Origin: Octopus sinensis
Taxonomy: Eukaryota
Length of the DNA stretch: 64,000 nucleotides
Reading direction: 5' to 3'
Assembly: GCF_006345805.1 (NCBI RefSeq)
Contig: NC_042997.1
Location: 44,144,001-44,208,000 of the forward strand
The notes beneath the pieces are model-generated. The model saw nothing but the letters and a program-made list of their open reading frames with translations, searched no databases and was not told where the DNA came from. Numbering within the stretch: position 1 is the first letter of the stretch; each line of letters starts with the position of its first letter. Below are positions 13,216 through 62,673 of this stretch, in pieces. The translations under genes were made by a program, and so were the position numbers.

Positions 13216-13971
13216 ACTAATGTTCCATCACAAAAAGGCACATTCTTGAGTTATCAGTGTAACTGAATTTTCACATTTTCCCAACCTATAGTTAACAAGA
13301 TAGCATATAAGCCAAACGAATTCTTTAATCCTCAGAACTCAACTGCAGAGGCACCTCTAAAAATTAATGATATTATGGAAGATTATATACTTACTGCTAG
13401 TAACCTAGATTCAAACTCAGCATCTGGACCAGATAAGCTCCCAGCCATACTGTAAAAACGTGCAAATACAGACGGATGAACCATCAAAAATACTATTTCA
13501 AAAGTCGCTCGATGCCAGCATATTCCCAGAACTACTGGAAGATACAATAGTAACACCTATACACAAAGGAGAGTAGCAGGGGTGAAGCTAAAAATTACAG
13601 ACTTCTTTGTCTCATATCCCACACATCTAAAATTATCAAACGCACTGTCCGAAAAAAAAACAATTACATATCAATTACAAAAAAATAATTACATATCAAT
13701 TACAAATACATATCAATTACAAAAACAACTTCTTAGATGACACACAACATGGTTTTTGAACTGGACGAAGCTGCCTGTTACAACTATTACAGCATCATAG
13801 CACTATTTTCAGTAATCTCTTGAGAGGAAAAAACACCGACTGTATATGTCTTGATTTTGCTACGCGTTTGACAAGATTGTCCATGGAATTATCTGTGATA
13901 AGCAAAGGGATCTTGGTGTCACAGGAAAGCTCGGAGAATGGCTCTGACGTCCTACACTGTAGGAATTAGTC

Positions 13972-40858: not shown

Positions 40859-41233
40859 ACACACACACACACACAATATTTATATTATACATGCGTTATA
40901 CATACAAATGCACATATAAATATAAATATATTTAGATTGGAAATTTGAATGACAGTTGTTTTTTTATTCATAAAGAATGTAAAGCATTTTACTGATAGAA
41001 TTTATTTATAGATTTGTAACTTTTTCATCTTGCAGAATGTTAAGAAACTTTTCCATATCTGTCTTTCTGTTGAGAACATTCTTGATTAAGAATGATATAT
41101 ATATATATTATATTAAATTGAGACAAAACCACTATTAGGCAAATCAAACAATGAAAAACTTAAGCCAATACATATGATTAATTTATATTATTTAAATATA
41201 TAACAAAATTATTAAAAAATATAATTAATATCA

Positions 41234-41297
41234 CACTACGATCATTTCATGCCTGCTAACATCTTCAAATTTTTGAGTTGCAGTCATTCATCAGGTG
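41234..41297 (-). ncRNA. Type I hammerhead ribozyme (stem III C-to-U variant)
   Basis: Minus strand CAC-CUGAUGA-AUGACUGC..GCAGGCAU-GAAA-UGAUCG-UA-GUG. Confidence 0.75.
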
Positions 41298-41329
41298 GTT
41301 TAAATATTTTTCTTTGCGAGGTTTTAAAC

Positions 41330-41393
41330 CACCTGATGAATGACTGCGACTCAAAAATTTGAAGATGTTAGCAGGCATGAAACGATCGTAGTG
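41330..41393 (+). ncRNA. Type I minimal hammerhead ribozyme
   Basis: Stem I CAC/GUG, CUGAUGA 41333-41339, stem II AUGACUGC/GCAGGCAU, GAAA 41379-41382, palindromic stem III CGAUCG, cleavage triplet GUA ending at 41390. Confidence 0.88.
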
Positions 41394-41516
41394 TGATATT
41401 AATTATATTTTTATAATAATTTTGTTTATATTTAAATAATATAAATTAATCATATGTATTGGCTTAAGTTTTTCATTGTTTGATTTGCCTAATAGTGGTT
41501 TTGTCTCAAATTTTTA

Positions 41517-41580
<64 letters not shown>

Positions 41581-41586
<6 letters not shown>

Positions 41587-42945
41587 ATGTTACATTACTC
41601 GGTAGTCAAGATAAACTCTGAGTTTCAGATGCCGAACGGTTGTCAATTTCTTAGACGTTTCCTTAGATCTTAATAATAATATTTATAAGCCTTATAGGAA
41701 GCCCAATGATAGACTAAGTTATATTAATGTAGGTTCATGCCATCCCCCTATAGTATTCAAAAATTTAGTTAAAAATATTAGTAAGAGGATTTCTAGCCTC
41801 TCATCTAATGAGGACATCTTCAATAGCGTTGCCCCAGTTTATAATAAAGCTTTAAAAGATAGTGGTTTTAGCGAAAAAATAAAATATACACCTATCACCA
41901 GCCCAACAATAAGGAAAAGGAATAATAGAAATAGGAAGGTCATCTGGTTTACGCCCCCTTACTCACCCGAGGTGGCCTTCAATATAGGTAAATATTTCCT
42001 AGCACTGAAGATAAGACATTTTCCAGTTAACCATGCTTATAGGAAACTCTTCAATAGACACAATTTAAAAATTAGTTTTAGTTCAACTACCAATTTTAAA
42101 AACATAATCAATCATAACATACAAAAAACACAAGAAGAAAACAGCTGTTCATGCAGGAATAAAAATTGTGCCCGCTAAATGGAGCTTGCATGTCCAAGAC
42201 CATCATATATGAAGCTACCGTAAACTCTATAACCACTAAAGACACCCGTTTCGACGAAGAATACGTGGGCCTGACAGAGGGTAATTTCAAGGCCAAGTTC
42301 ACTTTGAGCTTTAGGCACTGGAACAAAAGAAAAGCGACACAATTATCCAATCATATTTGGTCTTTAAGAGATAAAGGTGTCGATTATAACATACAATGGA
42401 AGATTTTGGCCAGATGTAAGCCCTATACTAACGGCAGCGGAAGGTGCGGTTTATGCGACATGGAGAGATGGCTTATCTGGAAAAGCAGCTTAGACCCTAC
42501 CACATGTCTAAATACAAGGACAGAGCTTTTCGGATCATGCCCACATGTGACTAAATTTCTGTTACGTTTTTGGTCCCCTAAAGAAAACGGATAGAACATG
42601 CTTTCTGTGTTATGTCCCAAGAAGATTTTATATATTTTTATATATTTTTATATATTTTTATGTATTTTTATATAATTTTTATGACGAAAAATGCGAGCGA
42701 TGTATAAGTACGCAGGCAAAGCAGAGTTATAACAGAGTAATTTCCCTTCATTTTTAACGGTATTTTTCATAACGTTTTCAAATAGCCAGATAACCGATGA
42801 GATGGTGTTGTGGATTTCCACTTCGGCATCTGAAACTCAGAGTTTTATCTGACTACCGAGTAATGTAACATATTGTATAGATAAATTTCCTCTATTTACA
42901 TAATATTGAGGTCTCTTTCTTTCTTTGTTATCTTACCGTTTTAAT

Positions 42946-42948
<3 letters not shown>
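41581..42948 (+). mobile_element. 5'-truncated Penelope-like element: RT thumb plus GIY-YIG endonuclease, with inverted pseudo-LTR fragment
   Basis: NFLDV..YRKPND..SCHPP, IWFTPPYS, CSC..CPLNGAC, IIYEA..YVGLTE, CGLC..E, LNTRTEL..CPH; 41581-41636 is the inverted copy of 42822-42878. Confidence 0.92.
42788..42850 (+). ncRNA. Hammerhead ribozyme in the Penelope pseudo-LTR (core variant CCGAUGA)
   Basis: AGAUAA-CCGAUGA-GAUG..CAUC-U-GAAA-CUCAGAG-UU-UUAUCU. Confidence 0.75.
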
Positions 42949-42986
<38 letters not shown>

Positions 42987-43265
42987 ATGTAGAAAAATAC
43001 AACTCGGACAAGAACGTAAAGCATTTAGAAGACGATACAAAAACACGGACGGGACATTCGAAGCTTCAATCTTAAGTCAAGAACCGGATCATCCTAGCAA
43101 TTTCGGTGATTAATCTTGAGATCGCTCCAATCCGGCCAGCCAAGGAAAAACTAAGCTACGAGCATTAGATTTCTTGGAAGAAGGATCGAATGTATACGAA
43201 AAAGGGACAGAAAAACGGACGGTGCCACACGAATATAAAATACAAAAACAATAATGGTAAAAACA

Positions 43266-43344
<79 letters not shown>

Positions 43345-43495
43345 CATACATACCTACATATATATGTATATATGTACGTATGTATGTATGTATGTATGTA
43401 TGTATGTATGTATGTATGTATGTATGTATGTATGTATGTATGTATGTATGTATGGCATGGTATGTATGTATGTATGTATGTATGTATTATGTATA

Positions 43496-43870
43496 TATAA
43501 GGCAAATAAGAAAATAGAGAGGATATAAAATTGACTAACATCAGTCAGTAAACAATCCATTATACCTATTTATTAAATGATAACAAACATGTGTTTAAGT
43601 GGTACAAGTAAACGAATGAGATCAGCCAATAAATACATAAACAGATATATATATATATATATAGAGAGAGAGATGAATGAATAATAATAGATGAGTGTAC
43701 GGATACAAATCACTTACGGCCGTTTCTACCATGAAGCCTCAGAATCTTCCAATCTTACTTGAACCACTTTAATACATGTTTGTTATCATTTAATAAATAG
43801 ATATAATGGAATGTTTACTGGCTGATGTTAGTCGATTTTATATCCTCTCCATTTTCTTATTTGCCTTATA
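43496..43870. mobile_element. Fold-back element with about 115 bp arms and a partial hammerhead in the loop
   Basis: 43496-43611 is the inverse of 43755-43870; minus strand GAAA-CGGCCG-UA-AGUG at 43711-43726. Confidence 0.8.
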
Positions 43871-44034
43871 AATTGTGGGTAAATTTCGAATTTACCCCCA
43901 CCCATCCCTAGTATTCAATTGCACTATTGTCATGCAATAATAAGCACTTGGTTAGAAATACGTATGTGTACATCCAGTAGTATACTGGATATTTAATATC
44001 CCTTAGATGGTTTATTAACATCTAATATATATTC

Positions 44035-44070
<36 letters not shown>

Positions 44071-44072
<2 letters not shown>

Positions 44073-44350
44073 AAATATAATATGTGACAATTATTCGGTA
44101 ACCATGATAAAACTCCGAGTTTCGGATGTCGGGGCGGAAACCCACGCCGGCATCTCTTCAGTTATCGGGCTATCAAAAAATGCTATGAAAATGACCGTTA
44201 AACAAAGGGAAATTACTGTGTTGCATAGTAAAACTCGGAGTTTTATCATGGTTACTGAATAATTGTCACATATTATATTTACAGATAAATTCCTCTATTA
44301 ACATAATATCGAGGTCTCTTTCATTCTTTTGTTGTCTTACCATTTCTATC
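44071..44350. mobile_element. ORF-less fold-back relative of the Penelope pseudo-LTR
   Basis: About 52 bp inverted arms (44071-44122, 44230-44282); tail 44283-44350 is homologous to 42880-42948. Confidence 0.85.
44106..44166 (-). ncRNA. Type I hammerhead ribozyme
   Basis: Minus strand GAUAA-CUGAAGA-GAUGCCGG..CCGACAUC-C-GAAA-CUCGGAG-UU-UUAUC. Confidence 0.82.
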
Positions 44351-44907
44351 AATGTATGTGTGTGTGTGTATGTGTGTATATAAAGAGAGAAATTGAAGTA
44401 TTATTGGCAGAAGCAAAAGCACCATATGTATGTATGTTTGCGTGTTTGTATGCATACATGCATGTACTTATGTATGTATGTATGCATGCATGCATGTATG
44501 TATGTATGTATGTATGTGTATTTGTGTGTGTGCGCAACTGTATGAGTGTGTATAGGTTTATGTTTACAACCAAACAACAGATTGCTCAATACATGGTGTA
44601 CAGTTTACACATTATAAGTTGTATCATAGGTTACAGATAGGATCATATGTTTTTTCCTTTATTTTATTACTTGCCCTTGAAACTTATGATATAACGAAAA
44701 TAATTTGTTAACATAGGAAACAAATCCGGGGAAAAATTGTTGAAATTTTTCTGGTTTGATATTTTGTAAATTTCAATTTCAATATTCTGAAGTTTTCCTA
44801 TTCAAATAAGAACCCTCGTTGAACCGAACTAATAAAAGGAAAGATTTTCTGTTTTATCCAATTGTCTAAGTTAACCGACAGGAGGGCTTATTACTGTATA
44901 CGTACAA

Positions 44908-45502
44908 AGGGCGGCAAGCTGGCAAAATCGTTAGCACGCCGGGCAAAATGCATAGCGGTATTTCGTCTGCCGTTACGTTCTGAGTTCAAATTCCGCCGAG
45001 GTCGACTTTGCCTTTCATCCTTTCGGGGTCGATTAAATAAGTACCAGTTACGCACTGGGGTCGATCTAATCGACTGGCCCCCTCCCCCAAAATTTCGGGC
45101 CTTGTACCAAGAGTAGAAAAGAATTATTAGCACGCCGGGTGAAATACTTAGCAGTATTTCGTCTGTCTTTACGTTCTGAGTTCAAAGTACGCCGAGGTTG
45201 ACTTTGCCTTTCATCCTATCGGGGCCGAAAGTACAAGTGAAACACTGGGGTCGATCTAATCGACTGGCCCCCTCCCCCAAAATTTCGGGCCTTGTACCAA
45301 GAGTAGAAAAGAATGGTTAGCACGCCGGGTGAAATACTTAGCAGTATTTCGTCTATCTTTACGTTCTGAGTTCAAAGTCCGCCGAGGTTGACTTTGCCTT
45401 TCATCCTATCGGGGCCGAAAGTACAAGTGAAACACTGGGGTCGATATAATCGACTGGGCCCCTCCCAAAAAATGCTTTGTGCCTTCAGTAGAAAGGATTA
45501 TT
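44908..45502 (+). mobile_element. Three MetaSINE-type copies head-to-tail (about 190 bp period)
   Basis: Units start near 44908, 45126 and 45316; units 2 and 3 share diagnostic changes. Confidence 0.9.
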
Positions 45503-45599
45503 GTACACGTACACTATATTGGCAATATAGAAACAATGACGCTATATCAATGTCTCTATATCAATGATGATACAGAGACAATAACACTGCTTGAGTTTG

Positions 45600-46870
45600 A
45601 TATGCAAAATACATATAAGCAGTCCTTTAGGTTGGTGGCAGTCTATGCTCCAAAAGAGGATAGTCAAGCAGTCTTTTTTCGGGACTTGGAGAATTTCCTA
45701 GTGACGTCGAAAACTTCACTTTTAACAGGAGACTTCAACACTATTCTCAACGTGCGGGTGAATAGTGTAGGCTCGAATTACAGAAGAGGAAGCGGATCTT
45801 TTCCTTTTGAACGGCAGACAATTTCTAGTTAACTAAACACTTTAAAACTTCGTATACTGGTAGAATGTGTCAAAATAAAACATTTTTTTCTCTTGGCTTT
45901 CTTGAGAAAATTGTAATTTGTTTGTTTAACGTAGTTTAATTTTTCGAATTTTAACTAATCCTATGCTCTCTTTTGAGCTAAAATCCTTTGCTGCGTCTAA
46001 AACTGAGACAACATCCTGTAACTAACCCTAAACCTCCCTTAAAGATTTTGGCCAAGGTGCTGGCAAAAAGGTTGACGGTTGTCGCGGAGAAAATTGTCGG
46101 GAAGGCGCAAACATGTGCCATCCCTGGCAGGTCGATCCAGGACAATCTTCATCTCTTACGCTACACCTTAGACAGGGTAGGTAAAGTTTCCGGTGAAGAT
46201 GGGGCACTGGTCCATTTAGACCAGAGTAAAGCCTTCGATAGGGTTGACCAACCTCCCTGGAGGCATTTAAACCCGGTTTGATTAAAAGACTAAACACGAC
46301 TGAATGGCAAAGGGAATGTCGGCAGGCACTTGCACTAATCGACGCGGCGGGTAAGGAAGGCCAGCATCGGAAATACCACGTCTGCATTTTACAAAGGGTT
46401 GGTAGAGTTTAAAAGTGACGACGTTCTAGGAGAAACTCTGGGACTCGATAGGGACCAGCTATCCAACCTGTTTCGGAACACTTTCGGGGTAGGGTATTTG
46501 GACAATTACCAAAGATCCCTGACCTGGCAGTGTTTCAGGAACGCGTTACCTGTTTACGAGAAATTGTCCAGGCACGGGATTTCAGTGCCACCCGAATGTC
46601 CAAGATGCGGCCAGGATAAGGTTCCTTGTTTTCTATGTACAGTCGCAGTCATGAAAGAGTGTGCATGGAGAACTAGAATGCAAGGTTTGACGTCAGGGAA
46701 CTTCATCTCCGGCTCTGGAATGCTATATTACTTCAGGTACCACCTGAAAAGCAAGATAGGGCTGGAGAGAAGACACCTGTCGAAAATAGCGTATGAGGAA
46801 AGATGGAAGGATGTGGTAAGGAAGTTGGGAGTGTATGTCCCTACTTAACCCATTCAGGATAAAATAAAGG
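45600..46870 (+). mobile_element. Fragmented Tx1/L1-clade LINE
   Basis: LVAVYAP..LTGDFN (endonuclease), KILAKVLAKRL..GRSIQDNLHL..DQSKAFDRVD (RT), CPRCG knuckle. Confidence 0.85.
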
Positions 46871-47262: not shown

Positions 47263-47510
<248 letters not shown>

Positions 47511-47596
47511 TAACAATAAAAGAATAGGACCTCGATATTAGGTAAATAGAGAACATTTATATGTGTATGATTTAGAACAAGCAGTAAGTTGTCATA

Positions 47597-47655
47597 ATAG
47601 CCGATGAGAATACATCATAGCTCTTAGCTCTGGCATTCGAAACTCTGAGTACTAT
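47597..47655 (+). ncRNA. Hammerhead ribozyme (core variant CCGAUGA) closed by an about 40 bp extended stem I
   Basis: AUAG-CCGAUGA-GAAU..AUUC-GAAA-CUCUGAG-UA-CUAU; 47561-47600 pairs with 47652-47692. Confidence 0.78.
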
Positions 47656-47696
47656 CATGACAACTTACTGATTGTCCTAAACTATACATACATATG

Positions 47697-47737
<41 letters not shown>

Positions 47738-47805
47738 GGTAAGATGAGAAAATAGAGAGGTAATTAATAAATTATTATTTATTAATTAAAAAATTAACAA
47801 ATACG

Positions 47806-47888
47806 CCTTATAGCTGTTTCAATTCCAGAGCTTCGGGAAATCAAGTAATAAAATTTAAAATTATTTTAAAGTCGAATCTCTTCAGAGG
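47806..47888 (-). ncRNA. Degenerate type I hammerhead
   Basis: Minus strand CCU-CUGAAGA-GAUUC..GAAUU-GAAA-CAGCUA-UA-AGG; one mismatch in stem III. Confidence 0.6.
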
Positions 47889-47997
47889 TATTTTAAGATA
47901 TACAAAATAGGTGTTCAATTCCTACATGTTGAGTAAACGGCTACAAATCGTTAACGGTTGCAGCCGTTCTATATATATATTATATATGCTCTCTCTC

Positions 47998-48039: not shown

Positions 48040-48235
48040 TAAATTAGAGATAAAACCACTATTAGGCAAATCATACAATGAAAAACTTAAGCCAATACAT
48101 AAGATTAATTAATTTATATTATTTAAATATATATCAAAATTATTAAAAAAGATAATTAATATAACACTACGATCGTTTCATGGCTGTTCAATTCTTAAAA
48201 TTTTCGAGTTACAGTCATTCTTCAGGTGGTTTACA
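48030..48235 (-). mobile_element. Single-arm copy of the 41100 element with an intact hammerhead at 48165-48228
   Basis: Homologous to 41105-41302; minus strand CAC-CUGAAGA-AUGACUGU..ACAGCCAU-GAAA-CGAUCG-UA-GUG; starts at (TA)n. Confidence 0.85.
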
Positions 48236-48380
48236 TATCTAAAATATAATCAATATTTTTAAGATATAAATAATATATATAATATAATAATTTTACTTAT
48301 AATAAACTCTATTATCAAATATGATTATATCCAAATCGACTATAATTTCCCTGTAAGTTTGGATTTATTCCCTAATATTT

Positions 48381-49253: not shown

Positions 49254-49624
49254 TGGAAGCACTCCATCGGTTACGACGACGAGGGTTCCGGTTGATCCGA
49301 ATCAACGGAACAGCCTGCTCGTGAAATTAACGTGTAAGTGGCTGAGCACTCCACAGACACGTGTACCCTTAACGTAGTTCTCGGGGATATTCAGCGTGAC
49401 ACAGAGAGTGACAAGGCCGGCCCTTTGAAATACAGGTACAACAGAAACAGGAAGTAAGAGTGAGAGAAAGTTGTGGTGAAAGAGTACAGCAGGGATCACC
49501 ACCATCCCCTGCCGGAGCCTCGTGGAGCTTTAGGTGTTTTCGCTCAATAAACACTCTGGGAATCGAAACCGCGATCCTATGACCGCGAGTCCGCTGCCCT
49601 AACCACTGGGCCATTGCGCCTCCA
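49254..49624 (-). mobile_element. Young tRNA-derived SINE (about 380 bp family)
   Basis: TSD TTGTTGGTAT. Confidence 0.92.
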
Positions 49625-51005: not shown

Positions 51006-51388
51006 GGAGGCGTAATGGCCCAGTGGTTAGGGCAGCGGACTCGCGGTCATAGGATCGCGGTTTCGATTCCCAGACCGGGCGTTGTGAGTGTCTATTGAGC
51101 GAAAACACCTAAAGCTCCACGAGGCTCCGGCAGGGGATGGTGGTGATCCCTGCTGTACTCTTTCACCACAACTTTCTCTCACTCTTACTTCCTGTTTCTG
51201 TTGTACCTGTATTTCAAGGGGCCGGCCTTGTCACTCTCTGTGTCACGCTGAATATCCCCGAGAACTACGCTAAGGGTACACGTGTCTGTGGAGTGCTCAG
51301 CCACTTACACGTTAATTTCACGAGCAGGCTGTTCCGTTGATTCGGATCAACCGGAACCCTCATCGTCGTAACCGACGGAGTGCTTCCA
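51006..51388 (+). mobile_element. Young tRNA-derived SINE (about 380 bp family)
   Basis: TSD TATGTGTGTGT. Confidence 0.92.
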
Positions 51389-57674: not shown

Positions 57675-57959
57675 TGCGTTCCTAAAACGACATCATCGGT
57701 CTTCGGTCTTTCACAAAAGGTAGAAGGAAGGAAAGAAAGAAAAATGAAAAAGAAAAAAAAGAATTGGGGAAAAATCATTCAGTCAAAACGTTTAGTGTAA
57801 ATATGGTGGAATTCTCCTGCCATTTTATTAATTCCTCCAGGCTGAGATGTCAACAGCTCACAAATATATCTATCCTCATGGGTTTTGGGGACTAAAAGTA
57901 CAGTGGAGTGAGGGGTTTTTTCCATCAAGAATTATAACAGAAATGCTATGATTTAAACA

Positions 57960-58200
57960 GGGGGGACCTGTAAAGATTCCCATTTGGTGTATGCAGCAGA
58001 ATGCGCCAAATACAAAATGATTTGTGCTGGTTGCACAACAGAACGATTACAAAAGAGATTTATCGGACATAGCTACAACGTCAGGCATAATAACACTGGT
58101 TCCACGAAACTTGGGGAGCATTTCACATCAAACAGGTGTAAATTTGAGGAAAACCTGAAGGTGCACTTTCTGTCCTCAAAACCCATGAGGATAAATCCTT
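57960..58200 (+). mobile_element. Penelope-like GIY-YIG endonuclease fragment
   Basis: TCKDSHLVYAAECAK..GCTTERLQKRFIGH..LGEHF. Confidence 0.6.
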
Positions 58201-58480
58201 AAAATCCTTTAAAATGTTTTAGCCCGAAGGCCGCGGCTATGCTGGGGCACCACCGCTGAATAGATATATTTTTAAATACCGAATGGCTATGAGGGTCCAC
58301 CAGAATAAAATATTAATCAAAGGGGTCCATAGGCAAAAAGTTGTTGAGAACCCTTGTTCTTCAACCCTGAAAGCTCTCAAAAGTCAAGTGAAAATTGTGA
58401 CCGAAGTACCATCGATTGTATCATGAAACAAGATGTAAAAACATGATGCGTGCGTAAAAGACTAAAAATGCTGCAAGTAG

Positions 58481-62137: not shown

Positions 62138-62286
62138 GTATTTACGATAATATACATACACGTACACACACACATACACGCACACACACACATGCTTGCG
62201 CGCAACCATATTTATGCACATAGTAATATGTGTATGTAAAATTATCTGAAGAGTCTTTAAACATTTTCTTTGTTTTACATTTACAG

Positions 62287-62673
62287 CTGATGTTTATCAT
62301 ATTGCAAGCTGCCGTTATGCTGGACGCGAAATGCGTCCCGCTACACAAAGAGCTGACTCTTGGCGCCTCCATTAGATCCACGTGTCCCAACGCTAGCAGC
62401 GAAGAGTTGTGCCCATCAAAAACGGTTATTAACAACGATACTGAGCATCGGCTGCCAATGATATTGCTTGAACGTCGTTGCTGTACGAAATTGTGTTTGA
62501 GCGGGAAACCCCACGTTTGCAAAGAGCAGTACATGGAGATCATTGTCATGAAACGACCGACTGTGAACGACCCCTACGTCAAGAAGAGCATGAACATTTC
62601 GGTTGGCTGTGTCTGCATGCGTAAGCGGGAGAAGATTGATTTGCCCGAACCGACAATGGAGGAAGAGCGATAA
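62287..62673 (+). CDS. Exon 2 of a secreted IL-17-like cystine-knot cytokine (138 aa spliced)
   Basis: Polypyrimidine tract plus TTACAG acceptor; CP..N.D..R.P..L.E..C..C..C..Y..I.V.K..Y..ISVGCVC matches the invertebrate IL-17 pattern; intact frame. Confidence 0.85.
   Translation: MMFIILQAAVMLDAKCVPLHKELTLGASIRSTCPNASSEELCPSKTVINNDTEHRLPMILLERRCCTKLCLSGKPHVCKEQYMEIIVMKRPTVNDPYVKKSMNISVGCVCMRKREKIDLPEPTMEEER

Follow-up and report, generated by a model that had tools for sequence, protein, structure and literature searches.

Previous reports define the Hydra clade of Penelope-like retrotransposons (PLEs) by a C-terminal endonuclease, a CxCX5C linker, the absence of a CCHH motif and C-terminal CxxC and CxH motifs, with RWK and DKT motifs, hammerheads and (TA)n targets as further marks (PMC8557442). 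An octopus member, Hydra-1_Obim, is described there as a 2507-bp consensus from Octopus bimaculoides (Files S1 and S7, Fig. S7). Inverted 5'-truncated copies, a tail at one side only and (TA)n targets are documented for PLEs in the same source, which records an inverted 5'-truncated copy for Penelope-13_HM of the Hydra clade, and inverted junctions at palindromes have been documented as well (PMC3846280). Pairs of hammerheads on opposite strands, 100-700 bp apart, have already been ascribed to truncated PLEs (PMC4209133).

The stretch of DNA analyzed here (the window, 64 kb) is AT-rich animal DNA, dense in microsatellites and retrotransposon fragments. The host is probably an octopus, to judge from this make-up and from how closely one of the elements matches an Octopus PLE. 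It holds three related elements, E1 (41581-42949), E2 (44071-44353) and E3 (~47505-47692), and a profile search revealed no further family member in the window. All three are broken, partly inverted PLE copies, none of which is able to move by itself, and all are dead now. Our main reading, to which we assign a probability of roughly 75%, is that they are separate, incomplete insertions from related Hydra-clade PLE families into microsatellite-rich surroundings. They add members to an already described clade by way of ordinary truncated and inverted insertions, and the family of E1 may already be catalogued. As things stand, their value is modest: they are extra copies of the octopus-type Hydra PLE lineage, and the main reading presents the nearby ORF-less hammerhead fold-backs, E2 and E3, as truncation products of known retrotransposons.

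Coding region and clade of the long element

The following features were assigned to E1:

41581-41637, minus strand: inverted arm, a tail-less copy of 42822-42878 (3' side of stem II, GAAA, stem III, 3' strand of stem I, flank), with (TA)n at its left
41636-42166, plus strand: coding piece 1, with RT motif 7 (NFLDV), thumb, basic stretch and linker Cys 1 and 2; 5'-truncated, without YRDD, by the published alignment
42146-42189, plus strand: Cys linker with Hydra-type CxCX5C spacing and a frameshift in an A-run at ~42161-42166
42169-42594 (coding 42169-42591), plus strand: coding piece 2, a GIY-YIG endonuclease without CCHH, with C-terminal CxxC..E..N..CxH, Arg changed to Lys, and three codons gone including that of a conserved His
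42595-42786, plus strand: 3' UTR, AT-rich, homologous from 42731 to the inverted arm of E2
42787-42851, plus strand: predicted type I hammerhead with a 7-bp stem I, CCGAUGA core, long stem II and palindromic stem III; predicted cleavage after 42844
42852-42878, plus strand: flank between hammerhead and tail
42879-42949 (~71 nt), plus strand: tail, present at one end only, with (TA)n next to it

An earlier reading of the window, made from the sequence only, held that E1 encodes an RT thumb, a Cys-rich linker and a GIY-YIG endonuclease. Our results confirm this assignment, given the match to relatives, the predicted fold and the position of the linker between the two domains; the coding region is no single ORF, being split by the frameshift at ~42161-42169. 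The first piece aligns with RT motif 7 and the thumb of long relatives (best P0151, 56%, E 1.4e-54), and the two coding frames align end to end with single relatives. The second piece (42169-42591) has a predicted GIY-YIG fold (pLDDT 93.6), and the top matches of this model in VIA were I-TevI (Z 8.2, rmsd 2.7, 89 aligned), T4 EndoII (Z 7.0) and UvrC (Z 6.0). For the thumb model the best VIA match reached Z 3.8, and group II intron RTs appeared at Z 3.3 and 3.1 amid unrelated helical matches; Foldseek returned nothing for either model at E up to 0.001. PDB sequence searches gave zero matches in one case and two irrelevant weak matches in another. Pfam found no family in either E1 piece, which we count against the best explanation. 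Among five long relatives Pfam found no RT or GIY-YIG match save a weak GIY-YIG in P0001 (E 0.035), and at E up to 0.1 its GIY-YIG family was detected in 21 of 81 alignment members, E1 not being one of these. Searched against longer proteins, the endonuclease piece had no match in a word-index search and 4235 matches at E up to 0.001 in an exhaustive one.

A YxDD motif is present in all nine long relatives, each of which aligns with both pieces of E1, and in each of them RT motif 7 is found at residue 390-405, ~45 residues past YRDD. Because E1 starts at motif 7, downstream of YRDD in these relatives, it is without the catalytic core; missing are ~390-405 N-terminal residues of a ~700-765-residue protein. 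Moreover, a conserved endonuclease Arg, present in 154 of 157 relatives, is Lys in E1, and a conserved His (153 of 165 relatives) disappeared with the three lost codons. The published alignment of the Hydra clade marks both positions, among others, as conserved (PMC8557442). A sequencing error might explain the frameshift, which falls in an A-run, but neither the truncation nor the residue losses are of such a kind. Truncation, frameshift and loss of Arg and His thus argue that E1, previously presented as autonomous, is not: it offers no intact ORF in which an RT catalytic motif is combined with the catalytic residues of the endonuclease.

That E1 is a non-autonomous member of the Hydra clade we regard as very probable. 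The sequence-only reading had named Penelope, Neptune and Naiad as candidate clades; Hydra was not among them, and it is the Hydra diagnostics that fit. Judged by sequence, E1 agrees with every Hydra diagnostic that its surviving part is able to show. As in the clade described in PMC8557442, the RT comes first, followed by a CxCX5C linker, whose spacing fits when read across the frameshift, and then by a C-terminal GIY-YIG endonuclease without CCHH, in which CxxC and CxH flank a conserved E and N (compared with the text of Fig. S7). Also shared with the clade are a type I hammerhead in the 3' region, a palindromic stem III and (TA)n targets: E1 has (TA)n at both sides, and E2 and E3 sit amid mixed TA/TG/AAT repeats. 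Relatives of E1 of at least 650 aa display DK[TS] (9/9), never DKG (0/9), RW[KRF] (7/9) and CxCX5C (7/9); E1 itself is without the RW/DK region. More generally, the marks of endonuclease-bearing PLEs (EN+) are present, namely an RT joined to a GIY-YIG endonuclease, terminal repeats (inverted or tandem) with the tail at one side only in all three elements, and, by motif scan, a predicted type I hammerhead in the terminal repeat.

Neptune, Nematis and Penelope-Poseidon elements are reported to have a CCHH motif with two Cys between GIY and YIG (PMC8557442), and were rejected for E1, which has zero Cys between IIY and YVG. Naiads are described as having no canonical hammerhead (PMC8557442), and Naiad and Chlamys, with the endonuclease N-terminal to the RT, were rejected on the order of the domains, RT first, and on the presence of hammerheads. 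In a tree of 38 sequences, in which E1 was placed among unnamed relatives only, it was sister to P0151 (support 0.97). Elsewhere in the window, a GIY-YIG-like fragment at 57868-58215 (profile iE 1e-4) is decayed and bracketed by inverted arms of 35 nt that are 86% complementary; its Cys pattern is, by eye, unlike Hydra, and it is perhaps Naiad or Neptune.

The closest described relative of E1 is Hydra-1_Obim, which, counted by eye, shares 64 of 86 residues with it across RT motif 7 and the thumb. The C-terminus of the endonuclease is similar in both and the hammerhead is in the same place, whereas E1 is clearly more diverged past the thumb and has a different stem III palindrome and stem II. 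Furthermore, the published Hydra-1_Obim consensus stops shortly after the hammerhead, without a tail, while E1 is tailed. Since endonuclease, hammerhead stems and 3' end differ, we take E1, by eye, to represent a sister family.

Fold-back architecture, hammerheads and tails

The two short elements consist of the following parts:

44071-44227, minus strand: inverted tail-less arm of E2, with 3' UTR, a complete predicted hammerhead at 44106-44166 (CUGAAGA core, predicted cleavage after 44111) and flank; (TA)n(TG)n at its left
44230-44283, plus strand: direct arm of E2, 5'-truncated inside GAAA at the stem III palindrome, 52/53 identical to the inverted arm
44284-44353 (~70 nt), plus strand: tail of E2, with 90% identity to the E1 tail; TG-rich repeat next to it
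47505-47562 (~57 nt), minus strand: tail of E3, with 86% identity to the E1 tail, merging into (AAT)n and (TA)n
47563-47600, minus strand: direct arm of E3, its first base being the first 3' of the predicted hammerhead cleavage site; 33/39 identical to the other arm
47597-47692, plus strand: inverted tail-less arm of E3, with a predicted hammerhead (CCGAUGA core at 47601, predicted cleavage after 47651) and flank; 47597-47600 is stem I and common to the direct arm

E1, E2 and E3 have one plan in common, in which an inverted, tail-less 3' end is joined to a 5'-truncated copy with a tail of 57-71 nt, the whole lying in microsatellite DNA. E3 had been noticed as a third relative of the tail, inverted at 47528-47560; a minus-strand copy does lie there (near 47505-47562), but it is part of a whole fold-back with its own hammerhead (47505-47692), an entire element of the E1/E2 plan in reverse, and no lone tail. 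In E2 the inverted arm is 157 nt long with 79% identity to E1 42731-42878, and the tailed arm, from 44230, is without the first core box and stem II. PLE coding sequence is absent from E2, as the earlier description of an element without ORF had it. The 5' arm of E1, by contrast, is no inverted copy of the tail as that description proposed: against the tail alone it scored 16, a score reached by 464 of 500 shuffles, whereas local alignment to 42822-42878 gave 55 matches, no mismatches and two one-base gaps. The outer ends agree, in that all three tail-less arms stop within a few bases of the tail start. In E1-equivalent coordinates the inner reach of these arms is 42822 in E1, ~42725 in E2 and ~42790 in E3, and the direct copies start at ~41637, ~42833 and ~42845, respectively. 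The short forms consequently do not recur with one fixed structure; their inner breakpoints differ.

A motif scan for type I hammerheads identified four cores in the window, three of them in E1, E2 and E3, and none in each of 20 block shuffles. The fourth match, at 13265-13335 on the minus strand (core at 13335), has a long stem II and a non-palindromic stem III and may be due to chance. A type I hammerhead was therefore found in both E1 and E2, as claimed earlier, with the correction that in E2 hammerhead and tail lie on opposite strands (core 44161, minus). Stem III is palindromic in all three, so that two copies could pair with each other (self-duplex -7.4 to -9.7 kcal/mol), and a dimer-type arrangement with palindromic stem III has been described for animal PLE hammerheads (PMC4209133). 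The hammerheads of E1-E3 are of this usual PLE type, with weak, dimeric action predicted. Minimum-energy folding favored the hammerhead in E1 only (z -2.5, 4/200 shuffles; E2 47/200, E3 48/200). Across the three copies 87% of cells in the hammerhead pairing were paired, a value equalled by 12 of 500 shuffles, and covariation was weak (37/500). Rfam reported no hammerhead in the window at the gathering score, nor among 65 matches at E up to 10, these sub-threshold matches being mostly microsatellite or hairpin noise. Hammerhead position 4 is C in E1 and E3 and T in E2, although E2 is closer to E1. All 26 Hydra rows of File S2 (PMC8557442) begin CTGA, in contrast to the C of E1 and E3.

The refuting condition attached to the proposed homology of the E1 and E2 tails, an absence of significant similarity, was tested, and the homology holds: no shuffle out of 500 reached the observed score in any of three pairwise tests (E1-E2, 63 matches and 7 mismatches; E1-E3, 48 and 8). 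A 24-nt tail motif has three exact matches in the window and none in 100 shuffles. The motif quoted in the sequence-only reading is exact for E2 and fits E1 only with one extra base. The tails are better conserved than the hammerhead region (90% versus 81% for E1-E2, 86% versus 71% for E1-E3). At 57-71 nt they are about twice the PLE norm of 30-40 bp given in PMC8557442, which we count against the best explanation. Each can form a short, small hairpin, which by eye resembles the hairpins that end other Hydra consensus sequences in the published material; compensatory change was seen in none of its eight pairs, and in two of three copies it was no stabler than in shuffles.

Origin of the inverted arms

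How the arms became inverted is a separate question, on which we favor priming from both ends of the target at about even odds. According to this scheme an intact element elsewhere would supply the RT-endonuclease, which would cut both strands of AT-rich microsatellite DNA, and reverse transcription on element RNA would be primed from each of the ends so produced, one cDNA beginning at the far end of the tail and the other just before it. Both cDNAs would stop early and join head to head via short complementary stretches, which the hammerhead may provide (stem I in E3, the stem III palindrome in E2), so that the length of the cDNA runs would decide whether the product looks coding (E1) or is an ORF-less fold-back (E2, E3). 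At the E2 junction there is also a possible 5-nt match in the UTR, weak and found with E1 as proxy.

Two lines of evidence bear on the scheme. First, in vitro work with purified Poseidon protein showed that it cuts both strands of AT-rich DNA, that it extends both, and that its RT has two start sites on the RNA, one at either boundary of the tail; this was demonstrated for a Poseidon and not a Hydra element (PMC11167929). The element in question, Poseidon_Ac (PAc) of Anolis, has a one-sided tail, a terminal-repeat hammerhead and AT-rich targets in common with E1-E3 and provides a model for two RT start sites, but it belongs to another clade and its tail sits within the ORF start. Secondly, the tail-less arm of E2 and E3 reaches further 5' than the tailed arm, and is thus not a plain copy of the tailed cDNA. 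We found no twin-priming account of PLE inversions in the open-licence literature, which does not show the idea to be unpublished.

A less probable alternative, though one to be taken seriously, keeps the same origin of the elements and ascribes the inversion to a single template that folds back on itself and self-primes at a palindrome, the endonuclease trimming the tail away at one side. Hammerhead palindromes or stems do lie at the junctions of E2 and E3, self-priming has been proposed from such junctions (PMC3846280), the tail has been ascribed to resolution by the endonuclease (PMC8557442), and the arms of E1 and E2 are near-identical; what is more, self-priming with trimming predicts the same junctions as priming from two ends. 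On the other hand, the two RT start sites seen in vitro explain the tail without trimming (PMC11167929), and no palindrome is visible at the junction of E1, as judged from its truncated copy. A genome rich in short insertions would offer countable cleavage-site junctions, and these would let two-ended priming be tested against fold-back.

It is an unlikely variant that Hydra inversion junctions record hammerhead chemistry in vivo: the RT would run off ribozyme-cut RNA, stems would guide the joining, the conserved ~70-nt tail, with its small hairpin, would be a signal recognized by the RT, and fold-backs would be recopied in trans. If this were true, short hammerhead-tail fold-backs would be the non-tandem counterpart of retrozymes. 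The tailed arm of E3 does start exactly at the predicted cleavage site +1, but this was seen at one junction, where stem I complementarity explains the start equally well. In vitro, PLE hammerheads were dispensable for insertion, and no RNA ends were found at the cut site (PMC11167929).

Relation of the long and short forms

Over UTR, hammerhead and flank, identity is 81% between E1 and E2, 71% between E1 and E3 and 63% between E2 and E3, and the arms within one element are far closer (E1 without substitutions, E2 52/53, E3 33/39). Since divergence between elements greatly exceeds that within them, we conclude that they are separate insertions from different subfamilies and that E1 is not the parent of E2 and E3. 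The proposal that E1 is the specific autonomous partner of the short forms was therefore right about the lineage, a PLE lineage related to E1 and identified by it, and wrong about the partner (81% and 71% identity). Insertions of this pattern are on record for PLEs, so the simplest account of E2 and E3 is that sister families (63-81% identical) gave rise to them as shorter truncation products, and we think it probable that all three elements are independent truncation products. Counting against this, the sample is three copies in 64 kb, each of a different subfamily.

Nothing observed requires a non-autonomous family mobilised in trans. That E2 and E3 are hammerhead and tail mini-elements, transcribed and then mobilised by intact Hydra elements, in effect the sequence-only reading with an intact relative in place of E1, we consider unlikely, for although the tail is the best-conserved part, as a trans-mobilised short form would also show, the junctions of the two differ, their identity over hammerhead and flank is 63%, each form occurs once in the window, and the same plan is seen in E1, which is plainly the result of truncation. 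There are precedents for such mobilisation: a pLTR alone seems to be enough in a rotifer (PMC3846280), non-autonomous Chlamys elements have 3' ends in common with autonomous ones (PMC8557442), and retrozymes have been proposed as derivatives of PLE pLTRs (bioRxiv 10.64898/2026.07.22.740005). The non-LTR retrozymes (PMC7229834; bioRxiv 10.64898/2026.07.22.740005) resemble E2 and E3 in being short and non-coding, in their type I hammerhead and in a proposed PLE origin. As described there, however, their units are repeated in tandem, head to tail, and every unit has a hammerhead, whereas E2 and E3 each consist of a single fold-back, joined head to head, in which one hammerhead is complete, and neither contains a same-strand tandem pair of hammerheads. 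We rejected E2 and E3 as non-LTR retrozymes on this ground, at least two tandem units with complete hammerheads being needed and one inverted unit being found in each.

That E1 is a working autonomous element and the source of E2 and E3, its frameshift being a sequencing error, is ruled out by the truncation, barring misassembly of the locus, for while the frameshift and both arm indels fall in homopolymer runs and arms without substitutions indicate a young insertion, the RT catalytic core is missing, with the coding piece directly abutting the inverted arm, the losses of Arg and His are not homopolymer events, and E2 and E3 differ from E1 by 19-29%.

The idea that the ribozyme fold-backs of the region belong to a single PLE lineage stands for E2 and E3 but not for 41115-41512, 48040-48238 and 43499-43867, which gave no BLAST or nhmmer match; as these other nearby fold-backs have no match to the E1 family, the lineage link ends at E2 and E3. 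When six other fold-back or AT-flanked segments were compared with the 3' end of E1, the observed scores were reached by 73, 1, 64, 43, 5 and 100 of 100 shuffles. The borderline segments at 43499 and 48040 were dropped as kin when BLAST and nhmmer gave no support.

The fold-back at 41115-41512 (94%) and a related single copy at 48040-48238 display a different type I hammerhead-like motif beside (TA)n, with cores CUGAUGA and CUGAAGA, a self-complementary stem III and a short stem I; they are probably another PLE family, unmatched to that of E1. The segments 43499-43611 and 43755-43867 form a 113-nt inverted repeat (93% identity) with a microsatellite inside, in which hammerhead scans were negative. 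Short non-repetitive segments between TA-rich repeats, unlike the 3' end of E1, lie at 42995-43268 and 47740-47965.

Other repeats in the window include a non-LTR retrotransposon fragment at 128-2430 (RVT_1 at 370-1296, E 2e-21; zf-RVT at 1262-2032), with an inverted repeat of 135 nt (96% identical) on either side, and decayed LINE-like fragments between E2 and E3 (45431-46848), with weak AP endonuclease and zf-RVT matches. An abundant SINE-like repeat occurs in partial tandem at 44907-45502, with relatives at ~2433, 17734, 20960, 21959, 35791, 50554 and 52677, and a 380-nt repeat is present as an inverted pair, 1.4 kb apart, at 49254-49622 and 51007-51388 (95% identity). Finally, an ORF at 62227-62670 contains an interleukin-17 domain (Pfam IL17, E 1.6e-5, above the curated cut-off) and is probably a host gene exon.
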